Both the position numbers and the translations under genes were made by a program. A stretch of DNA of 63,315 nt, the filler included, from Psammoneis japonica (lineage: Eukaryota), in assembly GCA_008632985.1 (NCBI GenBank). It is 6 parts of 6 records of this genome, joined end to end, with 100 filler letters (N's around TTAATTAATTAA, not from the genome) between each part and the next. Parts side by side here need not be neighbours in the genome. Positions count along the whole stretch, not along the records: positions 1 to 23,413 come from QPGO01000394.1; positions 23,514 to 50,285 come from QPGO01000399.1; positions 50,386 to 56,684 come from QPGO01000416.1; positions 56,785 to 59,302 come from QPGO01000444.1; positions 59,403 to 61,867 come from QPGO01000500.1; positions 61,968 to 63,315 come from QPGO01000515.1. One strand, given 5' to 3'. The notes under the pieces were generated by a model, which saw only the letters and a list, made by a program, of their open reading frames with translations, made no database searches and was not told where the DNA came from. This document shows positions 8,421 to 63,315 of this stretch, piece by piece; position 1 is the first letter of the stretch, and each line of letters opens with the position of its first letter.

Positions 8421-11400
8421 ATGAAGGTGAGAAGAACCCTAGCATCCACCACACCATCAGCCGGTTGGGCTTCCGGATCGTTTCCTACTAAAACACCCGT
8501 AATTTGCAGCTGCTAGCGACGGTAATTTGTCGGGGAAGTTTCCGGAACGTTTTGAAAACATGCATGGCCCAACCTCTCCTCGTCTTCTTCGTTACTCGCC
8601 ATGGTGTGGAGAGAGTCATTCAGTGTTCAGATGAACTTCCACCTCTTTTCATTGGTTGCTTGGCGTTGCGTTCGCTCTCCACTCACTTGCATGACATGAC
8701 GGTCCATGCAGATTCATTCATGGCCGCCATTGCCGTGCTCTATCGCTTGGCACAACCCACGACAGTGTCAGAAGCGTACACAGTAGCGGCTGGTATGTCT
8801 CTACGTATACGCAAATTTATTACGACCAAATCCTGTAAAATAATTTCCGTTGTGACGCTGACGTGACGTTGCACTCTTCTCCCTCCGACCAAGATGGGGA
8901 ACGTCTTCGGAAGTGAGACTGTCGAAGAAAGTTACGTAGAATTTGTACTAAAACAGTCTGTCAATCAGTGCGATTGGGTTTTGGGATCTCTGGACAGATC
9001 CTACGTGTTTTCTTGTGCGTACAAAATGCACTGGGAAAACCCCCAAACGCACTGGCGATCAGACCGCCTTCGACGATCTCACGCACTTCCAAAGACGCCC
9101 CCCAAAGAAAATTTAGCATGCTGTACAAAACACGAGCCTTTTTCCACAAACCAAAAAATCACCATGGCCACCACCTCGGAACGAAATGCCGTCGCAGCGG
9201 CGGAGTTGTCGGCCCCTGCTTGCCCCCTTCCAGAGAACGTTTCTAAAACACTCTCAAGTGTCTCCTGGCAAAAAGGGGCAAGCAGAGCCCAAGGCTTTGG
9301 AGAGGACATGTGGCTCCAAAGTGGGCTCGCATTTTTTCTGTTGCGGTGGCAACCAACGAACATGAGCAATGTTTCCAAGGTCCAACATGGAAGGCTTTGC
9401 ATGACATGACATTTCTTGGTTAGAATTTGTGACCAAGATGTTGGAAAGAGTGGCATCGCAGTCAGTTCGGGGTTTTTTCTTCTGCCGGCAGAGGTCCTCA
9501 AACAAGAACGAAGTTTGAGCAATGCACCTCCAGCTTCGCAATGATGTGCTTCGTAGATTGGATCCTTCGCACAGTCTGGGATTCACCTGATGCACAAAAG
9601 GACAATGCAAACTGGCAGCATCACAGGCCGCCAATCACAAACAGCGACATTTGGCTCCAAAAAGCAGGTTGGTTCTAGCACACTCGGAACCTGCACTCTG
9701 TTTTCCAACGTTTTCATGTCATTGCTGCAATGGTGAGAATGCAGCTGCAGCCTCAACAATGAGTGCAATGCTCAAGTTGCATGTGTTTGTGCTTCATTGA
9801 GACTTTTGCAGCTGGGAACCAAACAGTGCCGCCTCCAGGAGCAGCTTTCCACAGCAAACTGCAACGAATCGATGCCCCCAATCTTTGCAAATGCAGCTTT
9901 GTCTCAAATGCCTGTCCAAGAGATCCCACTTGGACTGAAGAGTTTGCAAACGCCAACAGCTGACTTGGAGTCAGTTTGCACTGGACAACTGTGCCGAGAT
10001 TGACGTGCACTCACACACTTGCCAGTTGCACCAGCTGTCAGCTTTTAAGAATCAGCAGACCAAAATCTTTGCAACACAGATTTGGTCTCAACTTTCCATC
10101 CAAGAGTTCCCACTGTGGTCTGAAGAGTTAATTCATGTCAATGGACAACTGAGGAACTTGTTTGAATTGGACGTTTGTGCTGAGAATGAAGCTTCACACT
10201 CGAAACAATTGCAGTGTCGTAAACGCACAACCAAAAACCTGCTTCCGTGTTGACCACTGTCCCAAAGAATGGTTGCTGACAGGAGATTGAAACAACAAGA
10301 CATGTGAGCATTGTTGACATTGCAAAAGAGATGGGCCCATCTTAGTTTGTGGTTGAACTCACCTTGAGAGCACTCTTCTGCTCCATCCGCCCCACAAAAA
10401 GATGTGCTCTTGAGCCTTGAGCATCGCGCCCATGTTCTGGCACTGGAGAAAACACCTTGAGGACAAGACGCTGTGAAATGCAAAGGCAGTGAGGGTCATC
10501 TGCGTGTGTTTGAAAGAGAGCGACACCTCCCGTCAGGATCAAATTTACCTCCAGTGCACCCCAACTCCACTGACATTGAAGCACTCCACAACAAGAGTGT
10601 GTGCTGCGACCATGTTTTCTGAAAAGCAAAAATTGCACTGGCTTGCACAGAATTTCAAAGCAAAAGCCCAACCCAATGTCAATGCTGCATGACAAGACTC
10701 GAAAATGGGGGTGTGTTTGCATCCACAGACCAGGCACTGTTGCATTTGTTGCCATTCATCATGGTGATGGTGCATCATGCTGTTGTTGCGTCTTCACCCA
10801 AATTCCAAAATTCTGCTGGGTTATGATGCATGTGCAGCAGAAATCTGCATCAATTTTCTGGCATGTCGAGTTTTGCACCAGAGCTGCGGAGGACCATGAA
10901 CCAACAACGAAACAGATGTGACACAGGAATGGCTTCTGAGCTGACACGCGCCACATCTTCCAATTTCATTCCTGCGCAAGGCGCGCACGATGCAGTCTGG
11001 CCAAGCTCCCATGCATGAACACAATCAAACAACAGGACAGATGGGCCATGTTCAATCAGCGTTGGATTGGTTGCCGGCCGGCCTCCCACTTCCAGTGCAT
11101 TCCTGCAGCCTCTGCGGAGACTTCGAATTGTTGCACGCCAAATTTTACGGGGCGGAGCTTTTCAAAATTTTGATTTTTTCTGAACACCGCAAAGCACACG
11201 ATGATGCTCGACAATCAGCATCAATGCTCACAATGGGAGGGATGCCAACATCGAGTTTGACATTTTATTTGATCCACGTCACACAGTGATGTCTGACACA
11301 CAGGTTGCTTCCAACACAAAAAGGAATGCCAAGAAGACTGAAGATGGCAAGGTCACTTGTCAGCGCATGTTCTGGGCAGAGATTGACAAAGTGGAGGCAG

Positions 11401-12774
11401 AATTGAGTGATTGCTCAATGGCCAAAGACTGCAACGGTTCTGAAAAGAATGCCCCTTGTTTGCACAAGCACCAACCCACCAGTGCACCGTGGATCTGGGG
11501 AAGACAACTTGTTGCCACATTTGTTGGTGTGGACAATGATGAGTTCAAACAATGGGGCCATTTGCATGATGAGGAATTGTGAACAAGTGCAGTTGCAAAA
11601 TGCACACAGCAGGAGAACAAAACAAAATTCTTTTCCTTTCGTTGCTTGCAGATTGTTCTCTTGAGATCACAGCGGCAGGAACTCTGTGGCTCTGACAGCG
11701 ACACTTTGAGTGCAAAAGCAGGTTGAAGGAGTTCACCCGTGCTTGTGGCACCACCTCTTGGAGCTCTCTAGAGAGAGTGCACTGTGGCCAGCAGTGATTG
11801 GAGTCATGAGTGTGGAGAGACGACACTCGACAGGCTCAACCTCGGCACAACCATCTCGCACAATCCTCTTGATGGACCGGCTGCACTCTCATGGTTCGGC
11901 TGGTCAAGTGGTTTGCCTCGCGGGGAGGGACCTGGAGAGGCATCTTGCAGTCACGTGAAAGGCACATGTCAACCAAGCATCATGTGCCCTTCCGGGCCTT
12001 TGAGAAGGAGTCTTTTTTTGGAATTTTGAAAAAATGGGACCTCGTTGGTGGGCAAAAGGAGCAAACGTAGAGTGATTTTTCAAACCGGTTGGATGGGTCT
12101 GATTTTCATGGACCAAGTGTAACACATGAAGATGGACAAGGGAACGATGGTTGCAGGGTTCTGTCTGCGTTGCAATGCATGGAACACCGATGGTGAAGTT
12201 GAGACCAAATTTGAGAAAAAGAGCTCCAGACATGCCACACGATTGCACAAAAGCACAAATGTCTCCAAAATGGTTCTGCAGATTTTTTGTCATTCACTCA
12301 TGTCATGCAGCTGAGCAAAAGAGGTGTTTTGGAAACGAGAAAAGTGGGGGGATTCTGACTCGTTTTTGAGACAGACAGAAGGCATTGAAGTTGTTAAAAA
12401 AACAGCACAAATGACATCACATGTGACATTGACAAATTGCCTTTGTTTCGACATGGCCAATTGCAATTTGTTGTTGCAACAAAAGAAAGAGCATTTCATT
12501 TGTTCTTTTCCTTTGATGAAAAGTTGCAAATCTCAGGAAGAGTTTTCTGATTGGCCAAAACACTCAAATGCAATGACCACTGACAAAACATCACACAAAG
12601 CCCAAAAAAATCACTTGAGCCCCCAAAAACTGGCACAGCACCCATCTGCCTGCGCATGTGTTGTGATCGCAATCAACACAGTCCCTGCCCCACTGCATTT
12701 GCACCAGACGTGTTCCAGCCGCACGTGAACCAAATCGTGCACAAAAACGACATTTGCGCGATTTTTGCGCGGCC

Positions 12775-13230
12775 CCTAACTTACGATCGAACTTTCACCA
12801 CCAAAAGTATAGATTTATACAAATATAAATGTTTTGCAACACTAACAAGACTCGTGTGAGTGTTGCAATATCATTGTTATTGTGCTATCTATGTTTTTCA
12901 TTGCGTTAAAAGATTCGTAACACAACGGATGATTTTCGGCGAAAATATTGCCGTTATTTGGATGTTACCTAAACATATCTTTCTACGATGCTACTTGGTA
13001 GGTTTTCTACCTACAAAAAAATCTCAGTATAAATCTACTGACGTACAATCAGTATTGAGTCTACTGAGGAAGTTTATGATACATATCCCATGAGGATTTG
13101 AATACCCCTCAAAAAAATATTTAAATGTTCATACTCTAGAAGCCTATAAAAGTCAATCCGTCTAAGTATTTTTATTAAAATACTATATACACTCAAATAT
13201 ACATATATTATATTCAAAATCCGATTGTCG
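12775..13230. other. AT-rich, TpA-rich island with several short inverted repeats
   Basis: ~55 TA in ~450 bp between nearly TA-free flanks. Hairpins: ttgcaacact/agtgttgcaa, attttcg/cgaaaat, gtaggt/acctac, ctcagta/tactgag, agtatttt/aaaatact. Confidence 0.85.
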
Positions 13231-13584
13231 TTTTGTGCGTCACTGGGACTGGAACACGTCACCAGCGAAAGACAAAACAATGACAGGTGATGCGATGCCT
13301 GCAGCCAATGGCACAAACATTGGAGTCCTCATCACTTTGTCAGAAGCAAAGCCTGAGATGTCAAGATTGAAGCAGTCCTCCGGCCAGTGCGTCGAAAATG
13401 CAACACACAGAAAAAGAGTTTTGTGCTTGCACACCATGACCATGCTTTGCAGTTTGTTCCCTCACCATTTTGTTCTGTCATGCTTTTCAGTGCCTCACCA
13501 TGATTCATCTGTGTGTGTGTGTGGTTTTAAATTGCACAGCAGGGTCTCTGCTGCTCTGCATTGCCAGAAACTCCTTCACAAAAC

Positions 13585-14548
13585 NNNNNNNNNNNNNNNN
13601 NNNNNNNNNNNNNNNNNNNNNNNNNNNNNNNNNNNNNNNNNNNNNNNNNNNNNNNNNNNNNNNNNNNNNNNNNNNNNNNNNNNNNNNNNNNNNNNNNNNN
13701 NNNNNNNNNNNNNNNNNNNNNNNNNNNNNNNNNNNNNNNNNNNNNNNNNNNNNNNNNNNNNNNNNNNNNNNNNNNNNNNNNNNNNNNNNNNNNNNNNNNN
13801 NNNNNNNNNNNNNNNNNNNNNNNNNNNNNNNNNNNNNNNNNNNNNNNNNNNNNNNNNNNNNNNNNNNNNNNNNNNNNNNNNNNNNNNNNNNNNNNNNNNN
13901 NNNNNNNNNNNNNNNNNNNNNNNNNNNNNNNNNNNNNNNNNNNNNNNNNNNNNNNNNNNNNNNNNNNNNNNNNNNNNNNNNNNNNNNNNNNNNNNNNNNN
14001 NNNNNNNNNNNNNNNNNNNNNNNNNNNNNNNNNNNNNNNNNNNNNNNNNNNNNNNNNNNNNNNNNNNNNNNNNNNNNNNNNNNNNNNNNNNNNNNNNNNN
14101 NNNNNNNNNNNNNNNNNNNNNNNNNNNNNNNNNNNNNNNNNNNNNNNNNNNNNNNNNNNNNNNNNNNNNNNNNNNNNNNNNNNNNNNNNNNNNNNNNNNN
14201 NNNNNNNNNNNNNNNNNNNNNNNNNNNNNNNNNNNNNNNNNNNNNNNNNNNNNNNNNNNNNNNNNNNNNNNNNNNNNNNNNNNNNNNNNNNNNNNNNNNN
14301 NNNNNNNNNNNNNNNNNNNNNNNNNNNNNNNNNNNNNNNNNNNNNNNNNNNNNNNNNNNNNNNNNNNNNNNNNNNNNNNNNNNNNNNNNNNNNNNNNNNN
14401 NNNNNNNNNNNNNNNNNNNNNNNNNNNNNNNNNNNNNNNNNNNNNNNNNNNNNNNNNNNNNNNNNNNNNNNNNNNNNNNNNNNNNNNNNNNNNNNNNNNN
14501 NNNNNNNNNNNNNNNNNNNNNNNNNNNNNNNNNNNNNNNNNNNNNNNC
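13585..14548. other. Assembly gap
   Basis: Run of N. Confidence 0.99.
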
Positions 14549-17500
14549 CCCCCCCCCCCTCCCTTGACTTCAAGCTGCATGCCACAACTCAGGTTGTGCA
14601 CCAAATGTTCCAGATCTCCAGGAGGCATGATGGTGCTGCAGCTGGCACTTGCCTGTTGGGTCCTTCTTTCTGATTTTGTCAACAGCCAACCAGAGTGCCA
14701 ACACTCAACATTTGCTGCACCACAGCAACAAGCCTGCCACCTTGCTCTGCTGCCCCCCTTCTTGCCCACATGATCCCATCACCTTTTTCCATCAATCATG
14801 TGCCCGCCCACCCAGCACCACCTTTCCTCCTTCTGTGGCCGCCCAAGTCTGCGCGCAACTTGATCCGGTGGTGCAATGTCCATGCTCCCGTGATGCTGCA
14901 GCATGATGCTGATGCTGCTGCATGATGCTGATGCCACGGCATTGTGCAATTCACACAGTGTGCTGTGCATGCGTTGTGCTTGCGAGTGACTCTCGCACAG
15001 GCTCAGACACACTGCTGGGCAGGACAGCAGAAAATAACACTTCTGTTTGTCATTTGCAATGACCCTGCTGCAAGATGTGAATGAAAATGTGTGTGACTCA
15101 CTGCATGACAAGCAGTTGCACCTTCCTTCAGCTCGACACACCAAGCAAATGCTGATGAGTCTTGCAGGGGACACTGAGAAGGAGTGAAGAATTCTGTGAA
15201 GACATGGCAGATTTGGTGATGCCAGTGTGCAGAAAATGGGCCAAGGACAACCCCAGCACAAGTGAGGGCTGGACCAGCTTTGCTTTTGCTGTGATCAAAT
15301 GGGCATCAGCACGGGAACAATGCTTGTGACAAAGAGAGACAGCATGTTGCACACTGATGGTGTCATCATGCCGGAGAGCTTTGGCGCAGCTGAGGTTTTC
15401 TTTGAACATTTCATGTTTGAGGCAGTGGGAGAACATGGCATGGGCCTGGCAGAGCAAGGCAAAATGCAGTCAATTCTTCATTGCCAGAGAGAGAGAGACA
15501 GAACACACAGTGCTGCACGTTCAATCCATGAACCCGCGCTGTGACATGTGCTTCGTTGGTGGAACATTCAACAGCAAAACCCCGGCAGCTGGAATGACAG
15601 CAAGTCAAGCAGATGCTGTTGAGATGGGAATGGCAAACCAAGATTGCTGCTTGCAAGTGTCAACTTCCAATTGTGCTGGCGCAAATGTTGGGCGCAATGT
15701 TGTGATGTGCAACATTCCCGCCAGCGATTTCATTCCATCCAATGTTTTGCAATGGCCAGGTCTTGATGGAAATTGCATGGTTGCGCGCAAATCACATGCC
15801 GACGATGAACCAAAGTTTTGTGTTCACGGCCCACCTCACAAGTTGAAGCACTTGACAAATGCAACAAGGAACAAGCAGCTGTGCTGGGGCCTCAATTGTT
15901 CCCATCCAATGTCTGTGAATGTGCTTCAAGAGGCACATGAAGCAACAACGCAGCACACCGATGAAATGGCTCTGATGTTTTCCACCAAGCTGCTGAAAGC
16001 TTGCAATTTCGACTCAAGAATGAACCAAGCTTAGAAACAAAAGGTCCTTCCTGCCACATGTGTGCTGAGCAATGCAATGTGCAGGGCGATCAACAAGGTG
16101 TGCTCAGACAGTTCTGTGGACTTCCCGCTGGCGCCATTTTCACAGCAAGCTGAGGCACTTTCCAAGATTTGAGAACTGTGCAAGAAAGTGAACCGTTGGC
16201 TTGATCTTTGCAATTCAAAGGACCCCGTCATGAAGAAACACTGGAGAGTCAAGATCACATGAAACCATGCTGAAAAGGCAGCAGATGAGTTGCCAGACAT
16301 GTTGAAGTTTTTTCATGATTGGAAAGACTTGCCAACTTGCCCCGATGGCACTGTCCTTGTGGACCATTTTGTCCCAATGGAGACCCATCAAAGCATGGAA
16401 CAGATTTGCCATGGATTTGCTTCCATCATCTGTGACCAGACCACAAAGCGGGGTTGAATGATTGCCTTGCATGTGCATTGCCAGGACAAGTGTGAGAATC
16501 ATTTTTCAAATGTTTGAGTCAACTGCGGCAATGCAAGACACCCATGAAAAGACAGGCCAATGCGTGTGACAAGACGTCCCATCTCAAACGTGCTGTCAAA
16601 GCAGGCAACAAAGGTGATGTCATGCTCTTTGAAGAGCGCCAGGCCAAGCAACTCTGCAGCTTGAAAACTGTGGCATGTTTCTGGGCAACCATTTCTTCAG
16701 TCGCAGCCACTGGCAGAGGAGCGTCTGATGCTTTGCAGATGACAGGCAGAGCGTGTGAGCAACAAAGGCACACAGCACCCAAGTTCTTGCCTCTTCATGA
16801 GTGAGACCCACTTTGAAACGTGTCGGCATCTTGTCGCTTGATTTGTTCACAGGTCGAGACTGCTGCTCGAGACGCAGTGAGTCCGACCCCTTCATTTTTC
16901 CTTGCAGTTTGAAGACCATGCCAAAATGCACCTTCCAAAGCAACTGTCGTGCACTCTCATCAAATGTGTGAGGTGCACATTGCATGAAAAGGTCGTGCAG
17001 TGGAATGCTCATCTTCGTCGCCTTCAGCATCTCTTGCAGAACCCTTCCCCGGTGATGCAAAACCTGAACTGCCGTGAAAGTGGGTTGATCAACAGCAGAT
17101 CAAGAACAAAAAAGGGCAACTTGCCTGATTTCATCCCAAGCTGTGGACTCTTGGAGATGGCATGAAACCCTTTTGGCCACTGCGGCAACCAAGGCAACTG
17201 AAGCCAGCTGCTTTGTGTGCACCCTCACCATTGCTTTGGCATCCACACCAAAGCCTCAATCAGAGAAAAAAGCAATGCTGTGATGCTGCCAAGGCATCAA
17301 CGGTGTGCTCTAAAAATTTCTGATGCAACAAGCAAACAATGAGAAGACAGACATTGTTCATTGGCACGTGATGCCAAGGCATCACATGAAATGCATTCAG
17401 CAACAAATGACAACGCAAGAGATGACAGCGCAACTTGCATTGACACCAAAACAAAAGAGCACCTGCATCTCTTTGCCCCCACCCCCACCCCACATTGATG

Positions 17501-18715
17501 ATTTGCAGCAAGAATGTCTGCAGTCTGCAACAGTGGCAACAACAGCAACCTCATGCATGTGACCCAATTGCCACAGAACAAACAGTGGCAACAACAGCAA
17601 GCATGAATGTGAAAAGAAAAGTGGGGAGGAAATCACCTGTTGGATGCTGGCTCCATGTTGCACGCATCTGTCAGGCGCCACTTGAGTTGCTGCAGCTGTG
17701 CCGGACACATTTGTTCCAGACTCCAGTCCTCTTTGCCTGCTCTGCCTGCTCTGCCTGCTCTGCCCTGGTGGCTGCCAGAACCAGGGCCCCAGAGCAGAGA
17801 GCACCAGCAGGCAGGGCTCCATGTGACATGCACTGGCCCAAGAATTCAACAAACGGATGTGTTTTTGTCTTCAACATCAAAATGAACAAGAGCCAAGTTT
17901 GCACACTGGCAAAATTTTGTCTCTCAAAGCCTGTGCTGGCAGGGTCCAGGTCTACAAAACAGCACATTGACAATCCCAAAGTCACAAAGAAATGCACATG
18001 CACAACACATGAGGCAGATGAAAAGGAGCATCATTGTTGCTGCACAATCCAGCGCAGCAAGGTTCCACACACAGAGAGCTGGAAGGTGTTGCTGGCAGGT
18101 TTTTGTGCACTTGAGTCACTCCTCAAGTGGCAAGATGCAGTGTGTCAGTTGAATCCTCCTCTCTTTGTTGTCTGTGCCCAAGTCACACATGTGCGCACCA
18201 CTGCTGCATCCCTTTTCTTCCCATCACCTCAGATCCCAAAGCAAAAAGAGCAGCAGCAGGCACGTGCTCTTCTTTTGTCGCTGATGGAATCATCTGAGCC
18301 ACAGCCAGAATGAGCGCCAAACTCATTTCTCAACAGATGACACACCTCCTCTGCATCACTGCACAATGGCCCCCCAGGCAGCTTCCCAGCACAGTGCACA
18401 GTTCAAGAATGCCTGTCATTGACAGTGCTGTCTGTGCCAACAGGTGCGAGGTTTAATGTGAAGTTTGCATGTTTCCAATGGGCATGGGAAACAATGAGAA
18501 CCAACACACCACAAGCATTTGCAATCATGCGGTGCAGCACCAGTGCGACAAACACCACTTGCAATGGCAGCAACATGAAGCAGCAAATGGAGTCCCACTT
18601 TGAAAAGAAAACTCCAAATCCTGCTTGAGCTCTTGGCTGCTGACCACCCACTCAAGGACATTGGATTCAGCCCTCCGGCTGAAGCCACTTCAGATGAAAT
18701 GCAACTTTGCCATTT

Positions 18716-19817
18716 TCACCGAGGAGCCTGATGTAAACCCAGACCGCTCAGCTTGACAACAGCTCCAATTTGTCCAATGTGTTTGTGCTTGTTTCCCTCA
18801 ATTTTGTCGTTGATCTTCACAGCATCGTTCTTGTGAAATTTTCGGACTTGACGGGCTTCCAAAGCTTGCATTTGAGCCACACCCAGCTCCTTTTCTTTGA
18901 GAGAGAAGCTGGTGGGAATTTGAGCAACTTCTGAGGCTTGCACTGGAGACATCATTGGCTCTTTTCCTTCAACAGGGAAACCAGTTGGAATCTGAGGAGC
19001 TTCCAGTGTCTGAGCTTTAGCTGCTGTCGCCTTGTTTCCTTCAACGAGAGCTGGCAGTTCCCCGAAAATGCCCCGCTTGAAAGAGAAGCCATCCCCTGAC
19101 ACCATCACCAACTTCAACAAACCAGTGCCCGCCACGCCCTTGTCATCTGCTGTGGCGTCTTCAGACTTGGCTGAAGTGGCAGTTTTGACTCCCCTGTCGG
19201 TGGCTGCTTCTTGATCCAATTCTTTGTCTGCCTTGATGTCTTCAATCGGTTCATCTGCCAGCACCTGAGCTTGAGCCACTGCCGCCTTGTTTTTTTTTTT
19301 TGGCAAGAGCTGGTGGTTCCCTGAAAATTCCCCCCTTGAAAGAGAAGCCACCCCCTGTTGCCGTCACCAACTTCAACGAATGAGCAACCTCCGCGCCCTT
19401 GTCAACTGTTGCAGCCTCTTTAGACTCAGCTGAAGTGGCAGTTTCAACTCCCCTGTCGGTGGCTGCTTCTTGATGCAATTCTTTGTCTGCCTTGGCAACG
19501 TCAATCGGTTCATCTGCTGGCACATTTGTTTTCCGGGACGATTTGTCCACAAGTTTGAGGGCTCCGCAGCAGCTGCACACTCTTGCGTGAGCATTGTTTC
19601 GGATGAGACAGCCATTGCACTTCCAACGTCCAGGCTTGATGGATGCATGGCCCCAAATGTTGGCGCTGTTTGCAGGAGGTGCAGCCTTGCCAAGCACATC
19701 AGCTGGCGGCGGCTCTGGGGCTTCAGCACACAGACGTTTGGTGGCGACCAAGCAAGCAACCTCTTCATCGAAAGCAAGAGGCTTGATCTTCTTCAACACG
19801 TGTCTGGCAAGATCCAC
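18716..19817 (-). pseudogene. RanBP2-type zinc-finger protein remnant with a ~260-bp internal duplication
   Basis: WKCNGCLIRNNAHARVCSCC matches W-x-C-x2-C-x3-N-x6-C-x2-C. DEPI..KADKEL.QEAATDRGV..GFSFKxGIF occurs twice. Frameshift in poly-T at ~19290. Confidence 0.6.
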
Positions 19818-22800: not shown

Positions 22801-22842
22801 CAGCGTGCTGAGCTTGATCGTGTTGTGTGATGTGAGCTTTGG

Positions 22843-23368
22843 CAAGGGCTTGGATGAGCGCGCGCAAACATGAAGTGGTCAGTCCCACCCACTCGTGACT
22901 CAGCACTTTCCCATGGTGAAAATTGCACAGGAATCTGACGATGACAAAAACAGTCAGACAACTCCACCAACAACAATGTCAGCTGTGTGCAATTTGCATT
23001 CTGTGATTGCAAATGCTCGAACCTGCCATTTTGGGTGTTGGGTGCAGTTGCTTTGACAAATGGGAAGCTCATCCTCCGAGTGAAAGACGAATCGCACGGA
23101 GCACCGTGGATTTGTGCGCAACACAGTTCGCAGCATCATTTTGGCAATGGCCAGCGAAGCAACTGCATTTGATGCTCAAAGTTTTTAATTCATGCATTGA
23201 AGAACAAGGAATGTGCGTTGCATGCAGCAGACGTTGTTGTCAGCGGAAGTCATCTGACCGTTTTTGTCATCATTGGACTCCTGTGCAATTTTCACTGCAG
23301 CAAAGTGCTGAGTCGCGAGCAGGCAGGACTGACCATTTCCTTGAGCCATGTGCTCATCTCAGCCCTTG
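22843..23368. mobile_element. Putative non-autonomous element with ~125-bp imperfect inverted repeats
   Basis: 22843-22965 is the reverse complement of 23246-23368, and many mismatches are CA<->TG swaps. No TSD found. Confidence 0.6.
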
Positions 23369-23413
23369 GATGATGTGCGATGTGCCGGCAGCATTTTTTG
23401 AACTAAAAGAGTG

Positions 23414-23513: not shown

Positions 23514-23519
23514 TAAAAA

Positions 23520-25725: not shown

Positions 25726-25743
25726 GGGAAAAGGGAGAGAGAA

Positions 25744-42295: not shown

Positions 42296-42319
42296 TCTCT
42301 TCACCCACCTCCAAACCCG

Positions 42320-51874: not shown

Positions 51875-53152
51875 AGCAACAATGAGAGGAGCATTGCTGT
51901 TCGACAGTGCAGCCGTCATTTGGGTCGTGTTGAGACAGCCAGCCACTCCATTTTTCTCCACAACGTTGAACAAATTGTTGTCAGCAACCACGCTGCTGCA
52001 GTGCATCCTTGCTCCAAAGAGTGCGCACCAATGAGGAATGTCCCCATTTGCGTGGCTGCTGCCATGTGGGTTGATCCAGCCAATGGACAGCCGCGCCCAC
52101 TGCCAGCCCACAAGGCTGTGTTTTTCAGGGAAAGAATGACTGACACCCCTGCTGTGCCCCAGCCAACTGTGAGCAAGTGAGCTGACTGTCCACGACACCC
52201 CTCGCCAGTTTGACCCCAACAGCGCGCACTCTGTTGTTTTCCCTGACTTGAAAATCAGGGTGCTTTTGCGCGCGCAAGGTGAGTTGAGTGCCAGAGCGGG
52301 ACTTGGGCCTGTCTGCAGAGAAGACTTCAATGTCAAGGTCAAACAAACATGTCTTGAAAACAAACATGTCGTTTCAAGGAAAACAAACATGTCGCTTCAA
52401 GGGAAAAAAAATGTCTTTTCAAGGAAAACAAATGCGGCGTTTCAAGGAAAACAAACATGTGGTTTCAATGAAAACAACCATGTCTTTTCTGGGAAAACAA
52501 GTGTGGCGTTTCAAGGAAAACAAACATGTCTTTTCAAGGAAAACAAACATTTCGTTTCAAGGAAAACAAACATGTCTTTTCAAGGAAAACAAACGTGTCG
52601 TTTCAAGGAAAACAAACATGTCTTTTCAACGAAAACAAACGTGTCATTTCAAAGAAAACAAACATGTGGTTTCAAGGAATGCAAACATGTCTTTTCAAGG
52701 AAAACAAACATGTCTTTTCAAGGAAAACAAATGTGTCATTTCAAGAAAAACAATCGCGTCGTTTCAAGGAAAACAAACATGTCTTTTCAGGGAAAACAAA
52801 CATGTCTTTTCGGTGAAAACAAACATGTCGTTTCAAGGAAAACAAACATGTCTTGAAAACAAAACATGTCTTTTCAAGGAAAACAAACATGTCATTTCAA
52901 GGAAAACAAACATGTCGTTTCAAGGGGGAAAATGGATGTCTTTTCAAGGACAACAAACGTGTCGTTTCAAGGAAAACAAACATGTGTTTTCAAGGAAAAC
53001 GTTAGATTGGACATTGGATGTTTGCCGCTCGAGACAGCACAGAGCCAACAGAGACAAAATTTGCCAGGGGCCGCACTCAAGATGGCGCCTGCCACTCAAG
53101 ACTGGATGTTGGGCACTCGAGACACTGCAGTTCACCACTTGAGATGATGACA

Positions 53153-53542
53153 GACGCGCCCCAGGTCCAGGTGGGACCTCGCACTGCTGAACTGTGACAT
53201 CGACAGTTTTTTGAATCACGTCGCATGTTGCGCACGCAGATTTCTGCGTGATTTTTTTGACATTTTTTGTCATTTTATGGTGCATTCATTGAGCGATCCA
53301 TCCAACAACTTTTGACATTTTTTGTTGCAGCGCGATTCTACAATGTCTTGAGAGTCGCGCAGGGCAGGTGCACCTGCAAAAACGTCGAGTGGCAAGAGGC
53401 ACAATTGCACCACAAACTTGGCAGCTCATTTGATGTTGAAGACAAACACACCCATTGGTCAAATTCTTGCACTGCGGAGCTCGCACGCAGAATTCTGTGG
53501 GCCCAATGTCACACGGAGTCCCATCCAGGACTGGAGCCCATC
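53153..53542 (-). mobile_element. MITE family A copy, inverted and more mutated
   Basis: Reverse complement aligns full length to 44702-45091. TSD is not intact. Confidence 0.85.
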
Positions 53543-53624
53543 GTTTTCAAGTGAAACAAATGTGTGGTTTCAAGGAAAACAAACATGCAAACAAACATGT
53601 GGCTTCAAGGAAAACAAACATGTC

Positions 53625-54010
53625 AACGGGTTCCAGCCCCAGGTGGGACTTTTTGTGACATTTGCCCCGTGGAATTCTGCGAGCTCTGCAGTTCGCACTC
53701 TGGTTGATGGACACATTTGTCTTCAACATGAAAAAAACGACCAAGTTTGTGGCACATCTGTCCATGCAGGTGCTCGAAGTTTTGGACAACATGCATGCCC
53801 TGCACCATTCTCAAGACACTCGAGAATGGCACAGAAGAAAAAAAATGTCAAAAGTTGGTCAATGCATGGCCTGACAATTGCACTGCAAAATCACACAAAA
53901 TTTTGCCACAATCACGTAGAAATGTGCGTGCGCGACATGCGACGTGATTCAAAAAACTGTCAATGTCACAGTTCAGCAGTGCGAGGTCCCACCTGGACCT
54001 GGAACGTGTC
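53625..54010 (+). mobile_element. MITE family A copy inserted in a satellite unit, TSD TGTC
   Basis: aaaca-TGTC-[element]-TGTC-gtttcaagg restores one satellite monomer. Confidence 0.9.
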
Positions 54011-54208
54011 TGTCGTTTCAAGGAAAACAAACATGTCTTTTAATGGAAAACAAACATGTCATTTCAAGGAAAACAAACACGTCTTTTCAAGGAAAACAAA
54101 CGTGTTGTTTCAAGGAAAACAAACATGTCTTTTCACAGAAAACAAACATGTCATTTCAAGGAAAACAAACCTGTGGTTTCAAAAAAAACAAACATGCCTT
54201 TTCAAGGA

Positions 54209-54398: not shown

Positions 54399-55589
54399 TG
54401 TCGTTTCAAGGAAAACAAATGTGTGTTTTCAAGGAAAACAAACATGTCATTTCAAGGAAAACAAACACGCCATTTCAAGGAAAACAAACATGTTGTTTCA
54501 AGGAAAACAAATGTGTCTTTTCAAGGAAAACAAACATGTCGTTTCAAGGAAATCAAACATGTCTTTTCAATGAAAACAAACATGTCGTTTCAAGGAAAAC
54601 AAACGTGTGGTTTCAAAGAAAACAAACATGTCTTTTCAAGGAAAACAAGCATTTTGTTTCAAAGAAAACAAACATGTCTTTTCAATGAAAACAAACATGT
54701 CGTTTCAAGGAAAACAAACATGTCATTTCAAGGAAAACAAACATGTGGTTTCAAGGAAAACAAACATGTCGTTTCAAGAAAAACAAACATGCCATTTCAA
54801 GGAAAACAAACATGTTGTTTCAAGGAAAACAAATTTGTCTTTTCAAGGAAAACAAACATGTCATTTCAAGGAAAACAAACATGTCGTTTCAAGAAAATCA
54901 AACATGTCGTTTCAAGGAAAACAAACATGTGGTTTCAAAGAAAACAAACATGTCTTTTCAAGGAAAACAAACATGTCTTTTCAAGGAAAACAAACATTTC
55001 GTTTCAAAGAAAACAAACATGTCTTTTCAATGAAAACAAACATGTCGTTTCAAGGAAAACAAGCGTGTCATTTCAAGGAAAACACACATGTGGTTTCAAG
55101 GAAAACAAACATGTCGTTTCAAGGAAAACAAACATGCCATTTCAGAGAAAACAAACATGTTGTTTCAAGGAAAACAAGTGTGTCTTTTCAAGGAAAACAA
55201 ACATGTCGTTTCAAGGAAAACAAACATGTTGTTTCAAGGAAAACAAACATGTCGTTTCAAAGAAAACAAACATGTCTTTTCAAGGAAAACAAACATGTCT
55301 TTTCAAGGAAAACAAACATTTCGTTTGAAAGAAAACAAACATGTCTTTTTAATGAAAACAAACGTGTCGTTTCAAGGAAAACAAACGTGTCATTTTAAGG
55401 AAAACAAACATGTGGTTTCAAGGAAAACAAACATGTCTTTTCAAGGAAAACAAACATGTCGTTTCAAGGAAAACAAACACGTCGTTTCAAAGAAAACAAA
55501 CACGCCATTTCAAGGAAAACAATCATGTTGTTTCAAGGAAAACAAATGTGTGTTTTCAAGGAAAACAAACATGTCGTTTCAAGGAAAAC

Positions 55590-56234: not shown

Positions 56235-56784
56235 GAAAACAAACATGTCTTTTCAAGGAAAACAAACATTTTGTTTCAAAGAAAACAAATGTGTCTTTTC
56301 CATGAAAACAAACATGTCGTTTCAAGGAAAACAAACATGTCATTTCAAGGAAAACAAACACGTGGTTTCAAGGAAAACAAACATGTCGTTTCAAGAAAAA
56401 CAAACATGCCATTTCAAGGAAAACAAACATGTTGTTTCAAGGAAAACAAATGTGTCTTTTCAAGGAAAACAAACATGTCGTTTCAAGAAAATCAAACATG
56501 TCGTTTCAAAGAAAACAAACATGTTGTTTCAAGGAAAACAAACATGTGGTTTCAAAGAAAACAAACATGTCTTTTCAAGGAAAACAAACATGTCTTTTCA
56601 AGGAAAACAAACATTTCGTTTCAAAGAAAACAAACATGTCTTTTCAATGAAAACAAACATGTCGTTTCAAGGAAAACAAGCGTGNNNNNNNNNNNNNNNN
56701 NNNNNNNNNNNNNNNNNNNNNNNNNNNNTTAATTAATTAANNNNNNNNNNNNNNNNNNNNNNNNNNNNNNNNNNNNNNNNNNNN

Positions 56785-58375
56785 CGATTTCCGAGTGTCG
56801 ACTGCAGCCACTCCCCTTTTTGCATCCAGCAGCAGTCCATGCAGATCTGAACAAAGCCACTTTTCTTAAAATCAATCACTGTTCCAAACCGCGTCTTGAC
56901 CCTTTGGGCAAAATTCTTGGCGGACATGTTGCAATTCAAGTGACAAGCGGGGCTGCCATCCTGCAGGGACACAGTGCATGCACGAACATTTGAGTTCGTG
57001 TGGAGATCCTGAACGACTTGACACCTTGCCTCATCTCTTCTTTGCTGAGTGGATCGGACAGCCTCCACGCCACGGTCCGAACATCTCATCTAATGTCAGG
57101 TTTCCGGCCATGACGGGCCTCGTCATGCAAAGCCACAGGACATTTGCACCTCCGTCTTGTCTGGGGATGACATGACAATGTGAAACAAAAGCACAGGAGG
57201 AGTCATGTTGCGGGTTGAGATTTGTGAAAAACATGACACCAAACAATTGCAGGAGTTCTTCGGCTGTTGACAGACTTGCACTCAAAAATGGCATTCACAT
57301 GTTTGTCCATGTCAAAATCTTGCACTTGTAAAAGGACCGGTGGCTCGGGTCGATCGTACGCGGTTGCATTGCTTGTGTCATCTTCATCGGATTCTTGATC
57401 CTGCGACTGAAGGACAACAGAATCTGCTGTGACAATTGGAACGCGGCAGTCAGAATCAGGACACGAGCAGTCCTCCGACAACACAGACTCCTCCAAAGAC
57501 AATGAGCTGAGTTCATTGTCTGCNNNNNNNNNNNNNNNNNNNNNNNNNNNNNNNNNNNNNNNNNNNNNNNNNNNNNNNNNNNNNNNNNNNNNNNNNNNNN
57601 NNNNNNNNNNNNNNNNNNNNNNNNNNNNNNNNNNNNGCAGACAATGAACTCAGCTCATTGTCTTTGGAGGAGTCTGTGTTGTCGGAGGACTGCTCGTGTC
57701 CTGATTCTGACTGCCGCGTTCCAATTGTCACGGTAGATTCTGTTGTCCTTCAGTCGCAGGATCAAGAATCCGATGAAGATGACACAAGTAATGCAACCGC
57801 GTACGATCGACCCGAGCCACCGGTCCTTTTACAAGTGCAAGATTTTGACATGGACAAACATGTGAATGCCATTTTTGAGCAAGTCTGTCAACAGCCGAAG
57901 AACTCCTGCAATTGTTTGGTGTCATGTTTTTCACAAATCTCAACCCGCAACATGACTCCTCCTGTGCTTTTGTTTCACATTGTCATGTCATCCCCAGACA
58001 AGACGGAGGTGCAAATGTCCTGTGGCTTTGCATGACGAGGCCCGTCATGGCCGGAAACCTGACATTGGATGAGACATGTTCGGACCGTGGCGTGGAGGCT
58101 GTCCGATCCACTCAGCAAAGAAGAGATGAGGCAAGGTGTCAAGTCGTTCAGGATCTCCACACGAACTCAAATGTTCGTGCATGCACTGTGTCCCTGCAGG
58201 ATGGCAGCCCCGCTTGTCACTTGAATTGCAACATGTCCGCCAAGAATTTTGCCCAAAGGGTCAAGACGCGGTTTGGAACAGTGATTGATTTTAAGAAAAG
58301 TGGCTTTGTTCAGATCTGCATGGACTGCTGCTGGATGCAAAAAGGGGAGTGGCTGCAGTCGACACTCGGAAATTG
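56785..58375. repeat. ~740-bp near-identical inverted duplication around a gap
   Basis: 56785-57523 is the reverse complement of 57638-58375, with a few substitutions and two 2-bp indels. Confidence 0.9.
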
Positions 58376-59452
58376 CTTCTTTGGCAAGAACCCAAGGGAT
58401 GTGATGGAAACGTTGTTTCATCCAAAGCTCCAGAGGTGCCGCATCATAATCCCGTGCACCATTTGGTCACTGACCCAAACCGTGCGCAATTTGGATGACA
58501 TTTTGGAGTGCGCACTGGTGCAGGCCATGACACAGGACATGGCACATGAAACAGTGACGCTCCCAGGCTTCCCAGGAGATTGGAGGAGCACGTGTGGATT
58601 GGCTGGGAAAACCATCTGACCAGGAAGCATTGCATTTGGGAGTCACGGAACAGGAAATTTGGGAAACGCTGCCACATGAAGAAGCCAATTCAGTCCTGGA
58701 GTTCCTGCGAGAGTGTGGAAATTACAACCCGAAGGAACCATTCCCGTTCCTGTCCTTCGACAGGAGAATTCCCGATTTTAGGGATGAGTTAAGGAAATGG
58801 CCTGGAGTTGTTTGCTGTGCTAGTTCCCAGTCGGATTTGTGAGTGATTGTCAAAGCAGGTGAGTGAACGTTGTCTCTGTTGTCCTTGTCGTCCCAATTAA
58901 GTTTTCTGCTGCTGTTGTCGGATGCTCACATGCTTTTCACCTGCTTTTGTGAAACAGCTCTCCCCATGCATTTCTGTGGTCTTGAACTGCCCAAACATGC
59001 TTTGTCCTGTCGTGTGTCTCAGCAATGCCGGTTGCTCCTCATGCACAACAATTTGTCGCCAACAGCGTCGATGGGCACCAAGAAAAGCTTGGGTGAGCAC
59101 ACTGTTTGTTCAGCAGAGGACAAGTTGTTGTTCTTCACTTGGTCCAATTGCCAGCGACTGACCAGGTCGGTGTGTTGCATTCGTTCAACCATGGTGCGCT
59201 TGTCAGGCTGGCACGTGCAAGGGTGAACGACCGCATGCAAGTCACCGTCGCTTTCCCTTTGGAAGAAACAGTGAAGTCTTGACGGGAAGCACAATTCCCC
59301 CCNNNNNNNNNNNNNNNNNNNNNNNNNNNNNNNNNNNNNNNNNNNNTTAATTAATTAANNNNNNNNNNNNNNNNNNNNNNNNNNNNNNNNNNNNNNNNNN
59401 NNAGATGCTCCATTGCAATCCTGCATCTGTGCGGCACGCAGGACCTTGTCAA

Positions 59453-61860
59453 TTAGACCGGGTTGAGTGAGTAGAAATCGACCCTCGGAGAGCTTTTCGA
59501 TCTTGATCCGAGAAAGTGCCCGACTTCTCCTTCGTCTCTAAGTTCAAATGCGTGGCGATGTTCGTCGTCGGAGACTCCTGACTTGCGAATTTCGGCTTCT
59601 AGAGCTTCAGCTGAAGCTCCAGCAAAAACGGTGTCGTCGACGTGCACCACACACATCATGCCCTCTTTGAAATACAAACAGGGATCTGTGGCTGAAGGTG
59701 CCCATCCGCGCTCGGTTAAACCAGCTCGTAACTTCTCGCAGAAGCCCTTGGGAGACTGTTTTAGGCCGCACAGTCCTTTCAAAAGTTTGAGAACCACATT
59801 GAGTCCCGACCTTGGCGCAAATCCCTTCGGCGGTGTCGCACAAACTTCCTCGGCGACATCAGCTTGGCAAAAGGCTGTGGTGCAGTCCACCTGTCGTGCA
59901 GTCCATCCCTCCTTTAACACCGCAGTGAGCATGAGTCGGACACTGGACCATTGCACAACCGGCGCGCAGGTTTCGAAGTGGTCGACTCCTTCTTTCTGCA
60001 AATCACCGCGGACGCAGTGTCGGGCCTTATACTTGAGAGGGGTTCCATCTGGGAGTCTCTTGAGCTTTAGTGCCCATGTGCCTGGAAGCACATTCATGTG
60101 CAGCTGACGCTCGACTGCTTTCCAGGCTCGACGATGTGTGAGTGCGTTGACTTCAATTTTCATCGCCTCAATCCATTCGTCGGCGTCCGGACCTTTCAGA
60201 GCATTGTGCAACGAAGGCACATCAGGGTCCTTGGTTTTCTTGCTAGCTGCGTAGGCTCGTGGATCGCTGACATTGATGGCACCACTGTCCAAATCCGTCT
60301 CGAGAGTCGCCAGATACGCCAGTTGAGCCTCGTGTCCGATCGGTGGCGGCATTTCCTCGACGGAGCTGAAGTGGACCTCATCTACAAACTTGGCAGAGTT
60401 GAACTGTCCCTTGGTTGACCGTGAAGACCGTCGCAGCCCTGGCACTCCCTCTGGATTCGTCAGAGGAGGTGTCTCGACTGGGGGAGGAGCTGTTGGTTCC
60501 GTCGGTGCTTCGGGTGGCAGAAGTCCATCACCATCTTGAGGTTCAGGTGGCTGAATTGGCGCAGAGTCCATAGAGTCTGTAGGAGTTTGAGTCACAGGTG
60601 GGACTGGTGGCGTTGGCTGCTGAGTCGTAGGTGCGACTCGATCGGTGACGTCGTCGCGAGAAATGGGTGAATCCGGCGCAGCAATCGATGGAGCAGGCTC
60701 AAAATGCCCGCGAATGCGTGTTGCTCTGGCTAGTTCTCGTTCTTTACGTTGACGCTCTGGAGGGGTAAGCCACTCATCGTGTAAATGAACTGCCTGATCC
60801 TTCTCCAGAGGGATGCACATCGATTGGTTGAGGCACAAGTGTTCCCAGTGATCAGGTGGATCCGTCTCCCTCTCGATTGATGGCACGGCAGTGAAGAGAT
60901 CGTCAAAGACCACATGACACTGAGGTGCAACACTTCCAGTTTGAAGATTGAGGACCAAAGGAACCTCACTGGAATGGATGGCACTGAGTCCCACGAACAA
61001 AGCGCGACGAGTGCGAGGCTCCCAACGCGGGAGCTTCTTCCCGGAAGCGAGGGTCGGGTCAAGTGCGCACGCTGGACATCCCCATGTGTGAATGTCGCGC
61101 AACCGATGTCTTGGCACTGTCGAACCGGTGAAAATGTCCGCTGGGCAATGTCCTTTGGAATTTGGGGTGACATTGTAGATGTGCGTGGCACAAGAAACTG
61201 CCATGGGCCATAGGGAGCTGTCAATTCCCCCCTTCCAGTGCATTGATGCATGAAGCAACATCGCTCTCGCCATGTTGGAGATGCTGCGGATGCCCCGCTC
61301 TGCGACGCCGTTCTGATGATGGGCGTTGGTTCCACAAAAACGGAGACGTTGTTCATGATCTCGTGTGTGTTGTACAAAAGCGTTGGCCTTGAAAGCGCCA
61401 CTGTCGGTAAGAAATTCTTGGACGATGACCCCGTGGTCCAAAGCATGTTTCTCAAACGCTTGCTTCGCGTGCATCGTCTCAACAGCGGAGAAACCCAGTT
61501 GATGCTCGACCTGGACATGGCCAGAGGCGTGGTCGACAAAGACACAACCGCCCTTGAATTGCTTGGACATGGCTTTGCCATAAGAGTCGAAGGTGCGGCC
61601 GAAAAGGCGCGACTCAAAATGATCAACGCTGACAGCCTGACCCGGTCGAAGATGGTCAGCTCGAAGGGCCCCGTCGCGTTCAGGGACTGTCGACTTGTGA
61701 GTAGATCCAAGAGAGCATCTGTGACCTTAGCATGTTCGCATGCCTCGCATCTTGGGTGGTCCACACTTCGCTGCGGACTTGAAACGGTTCGAAAGGAATG
61801 GAACTGCGCGGAGAAGTGCTTGGACGCAGCCAAAGTTCAAATGGCCAAAACGGGCATGCA
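59453..61860 (-). mobile_element. Ty1/copia LTR retrotransposon pol fragment (GAG-pre-integrase, integrase, RT), inactivated
   Basis: CEACEHAK, VFVDHASG, TDSG, AHHQNGVAER, HVVFDD, KYKARHCVRGD, LCGLKQSP, VVHVDD (catalytic YVDD). Integrase precedes RT. Confidence 0.95.
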
Positions 61861-61967
61861 TTTCGAGNNNNNNNNNNNNNNNNNNNNNNNNNNNNNNNNN
61901 NNNNNNNNNNNTTAATTAATTAANNNNNNNNNNNNNNNNNNNNNNNNNNNNNNNNNNNNNNNNNNNN

Positions 61968-62405: not shown

Positions 62406-62589
62406 TGAATGAATGCTGATGTGCTGTCACAAACACAGGCAGTTTGTGTGCCATTGGCGATTGGTTCACTGTTGCTCAGTCAGCGGCCCCAGCAGCACAA
62501 CATCCCACAATTCTAGAACCTGTTGATGCTGTTCAACGATCTCTGTCTTGTCTTGCACCCATTCTCAGCTGTCATGGCAGTGTTTGGTC

Positions 62590-63315
62590 AGTTTCAAGGA
62601 AAACAAACATGTGTTTTCAAAGAAAACAAACACGTGGTTTCAAGGAAAACAAACATGTTGTTTCAGGGAAAACAAACATGTCTTTCAAGAAAAAAAACAT
62701 GTCTTTCAGGAAAACAAACATGTTTTTTCAAAGAAAACAAACATGTTCTTTTCAAGGAAAACAAATGTGTCATTTCAGGGAAAACAAACATGTGGTTTCA
62801 GGGAAAACAATCATGTCTTTTCAAGGAAAACAAATGTGCATTTTCAAGAAAAACAAACATGTCATTTCAAAGAAAACAAACATGTCTCTTCAAGGAAAAC
62901 AAATGTGTCATTTCAAGGAAAACAAACATGTGGTTTCAAGGAAAACAAACATGTTGTTTAAAAAAAAAAAACACATGTCATTTCAAGGAAAACAAACATG
63001 AAACAAACGTGTCGTTTCAAGGAAAACAAACGTGTCTTTTCAAGAAAAACAAACATGTCGTTTCAAGGAAAACAAATGTGTCCTTTCAAGGAAAACAAAC
63101 GTGTCCTTTCAGGGAAAACAAACATGTGCTTTCACAAAAAACAAACATGTTTTTTCCAGAAAAACAAACATGTCTTTTCAAGAAAAACAAACATGTTGTT
63201 TCAAAGAAAACAAACATGTCTTTTCAAGGAAAACAACATGTGGTTTCAAGGAAAACAAACATGTGGTTTCAAGGAAACAAACATGTCGTTTCAAGGAATA
63301 AAAACATGTTTTCAA
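62590..63315. repeat. 23-bp satellite array, same family, more diverged
   Basis: TTTCAAGGAAAACAAACATGT units continue to the window end. Confidence 0.95.

Follow-up and report, generated by a model that had tools for sequence, protein, structure and literature searches.

A 63,315-nucleotide stretch of the genome of the diatom Psammoneis japonica (GenBank assembly GCA_008632985.1), referred to here as the window, raises the question of how nearly all TpA dinucleotides (TA) could be lost from tens of kilobases of eukaryotic DNA directly beside DNA of ordinary composition. A first-pass annotation had claimed that TA falls from approximately 29 per kb at the start of the window to 1–4 per kb further along, and had proposed that TpA is converted to TpG or CpA on both strands in repeat domains. 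Counting confirmed the collapse: positions 1–9130 (the flank) contain 369 TA in 9130 bases (40.4 per kb, observed/expected ratio (o/e) 0.59), whereas positions 9131–63315, minus the core of a later insertion (12780–13210), contain 235 TA in 51,593 bases (4.55 per kb, o/e 0.07).

TA content and dinucleotide balance along the window

The contigs of the window are joined by artificial linkers, five in number and all alike (44 N on either side of a 12-letter word with stops in all frames, at 23414–23513, 50286–50385, 56685–56784, 59303–59402 and 61868–61967), each bringing three artificial TA, and it also contains three plain N gaps. The linkers contribute 15 of the 235 TA, and when all five were removed together with the whole inserted element, 218 TA remained in 51,410 bases (4.24 per kb), where approximately 2,080 would be expected at the flank frequency. 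In 1-kb bins, TA ranged from 28 to 55 per kb over 1–9000; from 9001 onward most bins had 0 to 8 per kb, the exceptions being a TA-rich element at 12.7–13.3 kb and less-purged stretches at 24–27, 44–45 and 59–62 kb (9–16 per kb). The switch is abrupt and lies near 9130 at 200-bp resolution, with only 9 kb of normal DNA visible before it. Since the contigs are joined in an order that need not be genome order, the approximately 54 kb of purged DNA is not proven to be contiguous; the boundary is not a join, because contig 1–13584 holds both normal and purged DNA. Contig by contig, TA o/e in the purged part was 0.032, 0.072, 0.024, 0.0, 0.085, 0.107, 0.237 (the contig with a Copia-type open reading frame (ORF)) and 0.027, the second value belonging to the longest single purged contig (23514–50285, 26.8 kb), with a CpG o/e of 0.58.

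To check the sequence, we used Logan contigs from one public run (X1, one sample). Those covering 9371–9931, 10440–11037 and 11753–12043 match the TA-poor sequence with 8, 1 and 2 differing letters, and the depth of Logan contigs over purged DNA (52–61) lies within the range of the single-copy flank. The first-pass annotation had asked whether reads would show TA at the depleted sites; these contigs are TA-poor too, although the run may be the assembly's own data. The boundary at 9130 is bridged by no listed Logan contig, the contigs breaking at a high-copy repeat there. Of the sample's two other runs, X2 covered nothing past approximately 9.5 kb and X3 nothing at all, blanks from which no inference on expression follows.

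The loss of TA is matched elsewhere in the dinucleotide table. From the flank to the purged part, o/e rose from 1.16 to 1.63 for TG and from 1.10 to 1.61 for CA, while that of CpG fell from 1.04 to 0.57, and no other dinucleotide shifted comparably: AA/TT rose somewhat (AA 1.23 to 1.33), AG/CT stayed flat (AG 0.93 to 0.91), and none of AA, AT and TT was depleted. Relative to flank frequencies, the purged part lacks 1850 TA and 1303 CG (3153 lost) and has an excess of 1610 TG and 1564 CA (3174 gained). Because transitions keep pyrimidine–purine steps as such, this balance shows a redistribution by transitions only, the direction of which is not shown by the balance alone. The first-pass annotation had set CpG decay aside on the ground that it cannot remove TA, which is correct, but part of the TG and CA excess does come from ordinary CpG decay.

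Across 104 bins, the o/e of TA was correlated with that of CpG (rho 0.49). Even so, TA loss precedes and outpaces CpG decay in the same DNA: the Copia contig, at a TA o/e of 0.237, is missing approximately two thirds of its TA while its CpG o/e is 0.93, and the oldest contigs have reached 0.03 for TA and 0.37 for CpG. The Copia contig, with most TA gone and CpG intact, thus indicates that TA loss needs no prior CpG decay.

TAA and TAG are nearly absent from 9131–63315, leaving TGA as the sole common stop codon, and we counted 89 stop-to-stop frames of at least 150 amino acids (aa) in the whole window, some running across N runs, with long frames in all six frames. DNA that is free of TA, and hence of TAA and TAG, yields long spurious ORFs, so gene callers will over-predict here.

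Direction, strand and context of the changes

To polarize the changes, we aligned the Copia ORF, which diverges from its homologues by 43–50%, with 45 of them, and considered the 359 columns conserved at 70% or more. The window differs at 57 of these 359 columns. Of the 15 columns with conserved Tyr, 12 were changed (to Cys in 6, Phe in 4, His in 1 and Trp in 1), as were 9 of the 10 with conserved Ile, compared with 36 of 334 for all remaining residues together. Among the 21.7 transitions inferred as single steps (fractional counts), 10.3 were TpA to TpG and 5.0 TpA to CpA, followed by other A to G (3), CpG transitions (2), other T to C (1) and other C to T (0.3). Thus, 19.3 of the 21.7 were A to G or T to C, and 15.3 fell at TpA versus 4 at other A/T positions, which is the excess over other A:T transitions that the first-pass annotation had predicted. 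The 19.3 transversions and 16 multi-step columns also recorded are as expected at the divergence of the homologues. Consistent with the loss of Tyr codons, Tyr makes up 0.92% of the ORF, against a median of 2.9% and a lowest value of 1.71% among 120 listed homologues, and the reverse transcriptase motifs read LCGLKQ and HVDD where the homologue consensus has LYGLRQ and YVDD, in agreement with the damage to transposon motifs reported in the first pass. With its intermediate TA content, the Copia ORF looks as though it was caught part-way through the purge.

Tyr to Cys or His changes in unrelated genes had also been claimed. All eleven motifs on which that claim was based were located, and it held for Copia and for the DNA polymerase epsilon (POLE), helicase and TPR fragments; the Snu114/EFTUD2 start, located next to the TPR fragment, could not be verified, its 25-aa query giving no PDB match. 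Compared with human POLE, five of five Tyr positions in the two pieces read Cys or His (C, H and H in 41151–41456; C and H in 41992–42327), and two Arg in the motif A piece read His, a product of CpG decay. In PDB alignments, the DEAD-box helicase fragment displayed a Tyr to Cys change and the kinesin-light-chain-type TPR fragment a Tyr to His change.

Copies of the same sequence within the window provided a further view of direction. A terminal inverted repeat (TIR) element resembling a miniature inverted-repeat transposable element (MITE) is present as one younger and two older copies, and the 11 TA of the younger copy (44688–45091) read TG in 9 cases, CA in 6, TA in 3 and something else or a gap in 4 in the older two. 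Hence, 15 of 22 states were TG or CA, and there was no reverse case: no TA of an older copy stood opposite TG or CA in the younger, and all three residual older TA were also TA there. One site reads TA, CA and TG across the three copies, for which ancestral TA is the only simple explanation. Where copies differed by two transitions, CA opposite TG made up most of the sites (30 of 50 and 40 of 58), and the variable sites of the three-copy alignment comprised 14 with a CG witness, 7 with a TA witness and 12 with neither. Two pairs of near-identical duplicates differ by seven substitutions, three exchanging TA with TG or CA, four exchanging CpG with TG or CA and none of any other kind. In the inverted arms at 56787–58373, three of the four substitutions are of the TA type although TA is less than 1% of dinucleotides there; in a recent tandem duplicate, all three differences are at CpG. 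Among 78 units of a 23-bp satellite, which are not independent of each other, G to A was seen at 0 of 78 TpG, where it would generate TA, and at 19 of 156 other non-CpG G positions. The TIR-type element and the satellite do not multiply by way of RNA and are purged all the same, so that DNA, and not retroelement RNA, is what the process acts on.

Each strand of TpA is hit, and the hits are intermixed site by site. Changes on both strands occur within the single Copia ORF (TpG 10.3 versus CpA 5.0), giving both Tyr to Cys and Tyr to His within one gene, as the first-pass annotation had held; across the purged DNA the TG fraction is 0.50–0.53, and the series of TG and CA is free of strand-coordinated runs (runs test, z −0.4 to −2.1), with modest over-dispersion at 500 bp only.

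Survival of TA relative to the flank depended strongly on the neighboring bases, rising from ATAT (0) through ATAC (0.016), ATAG (0.032), GTAC (0.061), ATAA (0.086), CTAC (0.093), GTAA (0.115), CTAG (0.21) and CTAA (0.27) to TTAA (0.41). A model in which 5′-T-A-N decays independently on each strand, with additive rates, fitted these ten classes well (R2 0.96), with per-strand rates of 2.71, 1.48, 0.81 and 0.39 for T, C, G and A, respectively, at N, rates that include some surviving TA that is new or lies within young DNA. The additive per-strand fit suggests that the agent reads each strand by itself.

Taken together, the conserved columns, the repeat copies and the duplicates show that a TpA-specific, strand-independent A:T to G:C process acted on the DNA of this domain. 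In keeping with the view that repeat domains are affected, it appears confined, within the window, to repeat-rich, CpG-decayed DNA, with the adjoining 9 kb spared; this purged part, from approximately 9131 onward, consists of satellite, DNA-transposon and Copia copies and duplicated host-gene fragments, and is probably silenced.

Candidate mechanisms

The first-pass annotation knew of no named system of this kind. The same signature has since been reported in the main text of a preprint on Bigelowiella natans (Mettrop et al., bioRxiv 10.64898/2026.01.13.699255). We consider it probable that the window records a DNA-level conversion of TA to TG or CA by an editing enzyme, most likely through adenine deamination. 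The purged DNA was mutated in place, 5′-TA-3′ becoming TG or CA at a rate set by the base 3′ of the A (T > C > G > A), much faster than CpG decay and with neighboring genes and the newest insertions spared. The agent would be an enzyme-driven editing system of the B. natans kind, in which a deaminase reading 5′-T-A and directed to silenced or duplicated DNA may convert adenine to inosine. Its effect would be to inactivate mobile or duplicated sequence through loss of Tyr, Ile, Leu and Val codons and of TA-containing signals. Deamination of adenine in DNA is the leading candidate chemistry; tRNA A34 deaminases, as far as is known, always meet U33 before A34.

Several observations weigh against this explanation. 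Its chemistry is inferred from the sequence. Polarized support from the UTP4 fragment is weak (3 of 11 inferred transitions at TpA, with its single conserved Tyr intact), and the CA/TG discordance between repeat copies (40 of 58) cannot separate ancestral TA from ancestral CG and is consistent evidence only. None of 79 related Copia loci from metagenomes was purged, the lowest whole-locus TA o/e being 0.40, so that the process is not general among relatives of the Copia element. The two highest-copy elements in or beside the domain (8895–9082 and 12707–13260) are themselves unpurged, which makes simple repeat induction doubtful and would mean that the process is now off or is slower than their insertion. 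The normal baseline is 9.1 kb only (1–9130), and for the context rates this flank is of a different sequence type; the order of contigs in the joined stretch is unverified; and no platform is recorded for run X1, which may be the assembly's own data.

An unlikely alternative is that a TET/JBP-type dioxygenase or other thymine modifier marks the T of 5′-TA-3′ in silenced DNA as 5-hydroxymethyluracil (5hmU) or a derivative, and that mispairing with G or misrepair then yields T to C at TpA. Sequence cannot tell A to G on one strand from T to C on the other, and the context model can be read equally well as 5′-N-T-A with A > G > C > T. In kinetoplastid telomere repeats and in dinoflagellate DNA, base J and 5hmU are present at T before A, which we counted in favor of thymine modification, but 5hmU pairs well with A, so that a rate sufficient to erase more than 90% of TA is not expected from it. 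No sign of such modification in diatoms came up, and the sole paper on the signature favors adenine deamination in its main text (bioRxiv 10.64898/2026.01.13.699255). We regard as decidedly improbable a repair by-product, in which CpG methylation gives rise to T:G mismatches whose long-patch, error-prone repair by a Pol eta-type polymerase leaves A to G changes at nearby WA, as in the A:T phase of antibody hypermutation. Pol eta prefers WA motifs, two of the three non-TpA A to G changes in Copia are at ApA, and the co-variation of TA and CpG loss noted above would fit, but AA/TT is not depleted and AG/CT is not enriched, which makes TA, rather than WA, the target. The Copia contig, moreover, lost most of its TA with CpG intact, and in B. 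natans the GC-biased mutations of both viral regions are stated in the main text to fall all on TpA (bioRxiv 10.64898/2026.01.13.699255).

We also weighed a technical artefact, in which sequencing or polishing calls G or C where TpA carries a modified base, or scaffolding has mixed in other DNA. The artificial linkers and the poorly documented supporting run leave room for it, but it appears very improbable given that contig 1–13584 carries normal and purged DNA and that Logan contigs at ordinary depth match the purged sequence. The purged DNA is also truncated, frameshifted and CpG-decayed, and copies of one element differ in TG versus CA at a given site, as independent mutation predicts; these features argue for real mutation, and base calling in particular is unlikely to have caused the TA-poor sequence. 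That ADAR-like A-to-I hyperediting of double-stranded retroelement RNA was fixed by reverse transcription is hardly credible, even with a Copia element among the targets and a preference of ADARs for 5′ U described in the main text of the preprint (bioRxiv 10.64898/2026.01.13.699255). Against it, both strands are changed within one Copia ORF, coding-strand T to C included, the purge also reaches a DNA transposon of the TIR type, a satellite and unrelated spacers, and duplicates diverge at TA in place. ADARs also prefer 3′ G, the opposite of the rule in the window, where TA is retained more often before G than before T or C. We attach next to no weight to an origin without a mutator, whether foreign DNA or selection against TA by a TA-cutting nuclease or TA-targeting transposons. 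Dinucleotide avoidance is known in phages, but the purged DNA is non-coding junk on which selection is implausible, its purging is graded with proxies of age, and it holds diatom-type host-gene fragments whose conserved Tyr codons have been converted.

Four other candidates were rejected. Fungal repeat-induced point mutation (RIP) would enrich TpA and deplete CpA and TpG, the reverse of the TA o/e of 0.07 and the CA and TG o/e of 1.6 found here. Decay of methylated CpG alone falls short in quantity, the CpG loss (1303) being less than half of the combined TG and CA gain (3174), with the TA loss (1850) supplying the rest. GC-biased gene conversion is rejected on the GC content, which is 0.476 for the flank and 0.485 for the purged DNA, and APOBEC editing does not account for hits on both strands, on a DNA transposon and on satellite.

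Features of the window and comparison with known systems

The features identified along the window are listed in Table 1. Rfam and tRNA scans of the window returned no matches, and Pfam searches of 298 ORF translations recovered few fragments only, with no viral hallmark among the ORFs scanned, most of the purged DNA being unrecognizable.

Table 1. Features of the P. japonica window, in order of position (TRF, Tandem Repeats Finder).
Feature	Position	Strand	Evidence or remarks
Unaffected flank, internal control, ordinary ORFs	1–9130		TA 40.4 per kb, CpG o/e 1.04
Cys-rich ORF, open at window start	1–1017		Two distant database homologues (41% identity), one with Pfam PF06701
Cold-shock-domain gene (within flank)	4328–4983	-	CSD Pfam matches
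High-copy repeat, normal TA content	8895–9082		Logan word depth 5790 (bin 8608–9060), approximately 5,800–12,000; loose ends at 8895 and 9082
First TA-purged stretch, same contig as flank	9131–12706		0–2 TA per 200 bp
TIR-bounded element, later insertion, unpurged	12707–13260 (core 12780–13210)		Inverted repeat; core TA o/e 1.03, 31% GC
Fully purged contig	14548–23413		TA o/e 0.032, CpG o/e 0.37
RanBP-type zinc-finger fragment	19254–19931	-	Pfam match
Longest purged contig, mosaic of host-gene fragments and unrecognizable DNA	23514–50285		TA o/e 0.072
Amino-acid transporter, N-terminal fragment, adjoining UTP4 fragment	25144–25743	-	Pfam Aa_trans, E 2e-14
UTP4 (nucleolar WD40) internal fragment, less-purged sub-stretch	25747–26559	-	Matches residues ~135–440 of ~810-aa UTP4 proteins
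Kinesin-light-chain-type TPR fragment	30301–30681	+	Pfam TPR_10/12; PDB alignment gkY>gkH
DNA polymerase epsilon fragment, exonuclease domain	41151–41456	+	PDB 9ne9_A residues 260–335, E 9e-15
DNA polymerase epsilon fragment, motif A	41992–42327	+	PDB 9ne9_A residues 594–653, E 2e-17
DEAD-box helicase C-terminal fragment	42679–43170	+	PDB 1hv8_A, E 1.4e-4; Tyr>Cys, Arg>Trp in motif VI
TIR (MITE-like) element, less-mutated copy	44688–45091	+	11 TA kept; 500-bp bin at 44501: TA o/e 0.34, CpG o/e 1.02
TIR element, two older copies	53153–53535 (reversed), 53613–54010		2 and 1 TA left
23-bp TA-free satellite, largest array	54399–55589		TRF
23-bp satellite, other arrays	52356–53000, 54011–54208, 56235–56679, 62591–63315		TRF
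Near-identical inverted arms around N run	56787–57523 and 57637–58373		737 bp each, 98.9% identity, 113-N gap
Copia-type integrase–reverse transcriptase ORF on own contig, partly purged	59456–61726	-	Pfam RVT_2; contig TA o/e 0.237, CpG o/e 0.93

For the ORF at the window start, the nearest protein-atlas clusters were giant-virus proteins, with scores below 0.9 that are too low to trust and were left unused. The high-copy repeat at the end of the flank is untouched and stops approximately 50 bp before the purge begins; its presence there means that the domain boundary may be an insertion or rearrangement point. The element at 12707–13260 is bounded by the same terminal words as the MITE-like family (approximately 400 bp, with TIRs of approximately 25 bp), and its Logan word depth of 22,660 is several hundred times that of the flank; other contigs run from 12689 straight to 13260, skipping the element. 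An active MITE is one candidate identity for it, DNA of organelle origin a possible other.

Pieces of unrelated essential host genes lie head to tail at 25144–26559, 30009–30681 and 41151–43170, the helicase tail following within 900 bp of the two POLE pieces, and this mosaic suggests capture or filler DNA. For the UTP4 fragment, all nine organism-named matches among the 120 listed are diatoms, with pennates closest (39–42%), and both organism-named matches of the Copia ORF are to Fragilaria crotonensis. Homology thus assigns the window to a diatom and not to Bigelowiella, although its own proteome seems to be missing from the database searched. The inverted arms may be a true palindrome or an assembly fold-back. 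Translation of the 23-bp satellite gave spurious matches to an ice-binding beta-roll Pfam family.

To our knowledge, no defence by dinucleotide-specific hypermutation other than fungal RIP had been described from eukaryotic genomes before 2026; RIP requires duplication and a sexual cycle. Both RIP and the process in the window hypermutate repeated or foreign DNA by transitions at one kind of dinucleotide, act regionally and alike on the two strands, leave a footprint and ruin coding capacity. They are opposite in direction: RIP converts CpA to TpA, so that TpA rises (PMC2621366), whereas the diatom process erases TpA. Also unlike RIP, the highest-copy elements are untouched in the diatom, and the target described in the main text for B. 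natans is single-copy. Methylated-CpG decay likewise feeds TG and CA and is active in the same DNA (CpG o/e 0.57), but it cannot remove TA and, judging by the Copia contig (CpG 0.93 versus TA 0.237), is slower than TA loss. The ADAR and APOBEC enzymes of animals offer a precedent for deaminase-type hypermutation of repeats and viruses such as we propose, in the case of ADARs, which the main text of the preprint describes as a metazoan family, with a 5′-U preference (bioRxiv 10.64898/2026.01.13.699255). These enzymes act on RNA or on single-stranded intermediates of reverse transcription, mark one strand and reach retro-copies only; in the diatom, by contrast, both strands, DNA transposons and satellite are hit.

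The closest parallel is B. natans, a chlorarachniophyte (Rhizaria) and not a diatom. According to the main text of Mettrop et al. (bioRxiv 10.64898/2026.01.13.699255), its mutation-accumulation lines gained 302 new mutations, 231 of them in a giant-virus and a virophage insertion, 230 of these 231 were A to G or T to C, and all GC-biased ones are stated to fall on TpA; the contrast to the rest of the genome is approximately 1000-fold. The same text reports 124 clusters of windows poor in TpA and rich in CpA plus TpG, and names an ADAT2-type candidate (bioRxiv 10.64898/2026.01.13.699255). Going by that account, the two cases agree in the change itself, TpA giving TpG or CpA with both strands hit, and in the lasting signature, clustered 1-kb windows low in TpA and high in CpA plus TpG. 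The diatom process, too, looks regional, and in B. natans transposon domains are enriched among the TpA-poor genes. They differ in that the active B. natans targets are still TpA-rich (3.3% and 9.2% of dinucleotides in the giant-virus and virophage insertions, compared with 0.4–0.5% in the diatom), and in that the B. natans process is known from mutation-accumulation lines and the diatom process from its footprint in the genome. The diatom targets comprise the Copia and TIR elements, satellite and host-gene fragments.

Among open-licence PubMed Central papers and bioRxiv, the B. natans preprint alone turned out to describe the signature, with no report on diatoms, and the main text of that preprint mentions no flanking-base context, no CpG co-decay and no diatom (bioRxiv 10.64898/2026.01.13.699255). 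Set against that text, the window adds a rule for the flanking bases, a coupling of TA loss to CpG decay, and a set of targets that extends to satellite, a DNA transposon and pieces of host genes. The rule T-A-T > T-A-C > T-A-G > T-A-A, additive per strand, is a constraint that any candidate enzyme must reproduce. A role in genome defence is what we infer, here as in B. natans.

The window is a second, phylogenetically distant and far more complete case of a process described once before, with a much stronger footprint (more than 90% of TA erased), and suggests a RIP-like defence in the opposite chemical direction that is wider than known. Diatoms belong to another supergroup and dominate ecologically, and with a case among them the process looks like a broader phenomenon and not a one-strain curiosity. 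We hold it possible, if only tentatively, that TpA-directed DNA editing is an enzyme-based genome defence across distant eukaryotic algae (Rhizaria and Stramenopila), which would read single strands as 5′-T-A-Y, act together with CpG methylation on silenced DNA, and come near completion over tens of kilobases in this diatom. Two affected lineages give a comparative handle, namely genes common to both and absent from diatoms without the footprint. If the proposal is true, a comparison of genomes that carry the footprint with genomes that lack it could lead to the first natural editor of adenine (or thymine) in eukaryotic DNA, and a natural DNA editor with A:T to G:C activity would be of interest to base-editing research. 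Set beside RIP, which makes TpA, such an editor would work in the mirror-image direction and erase it.

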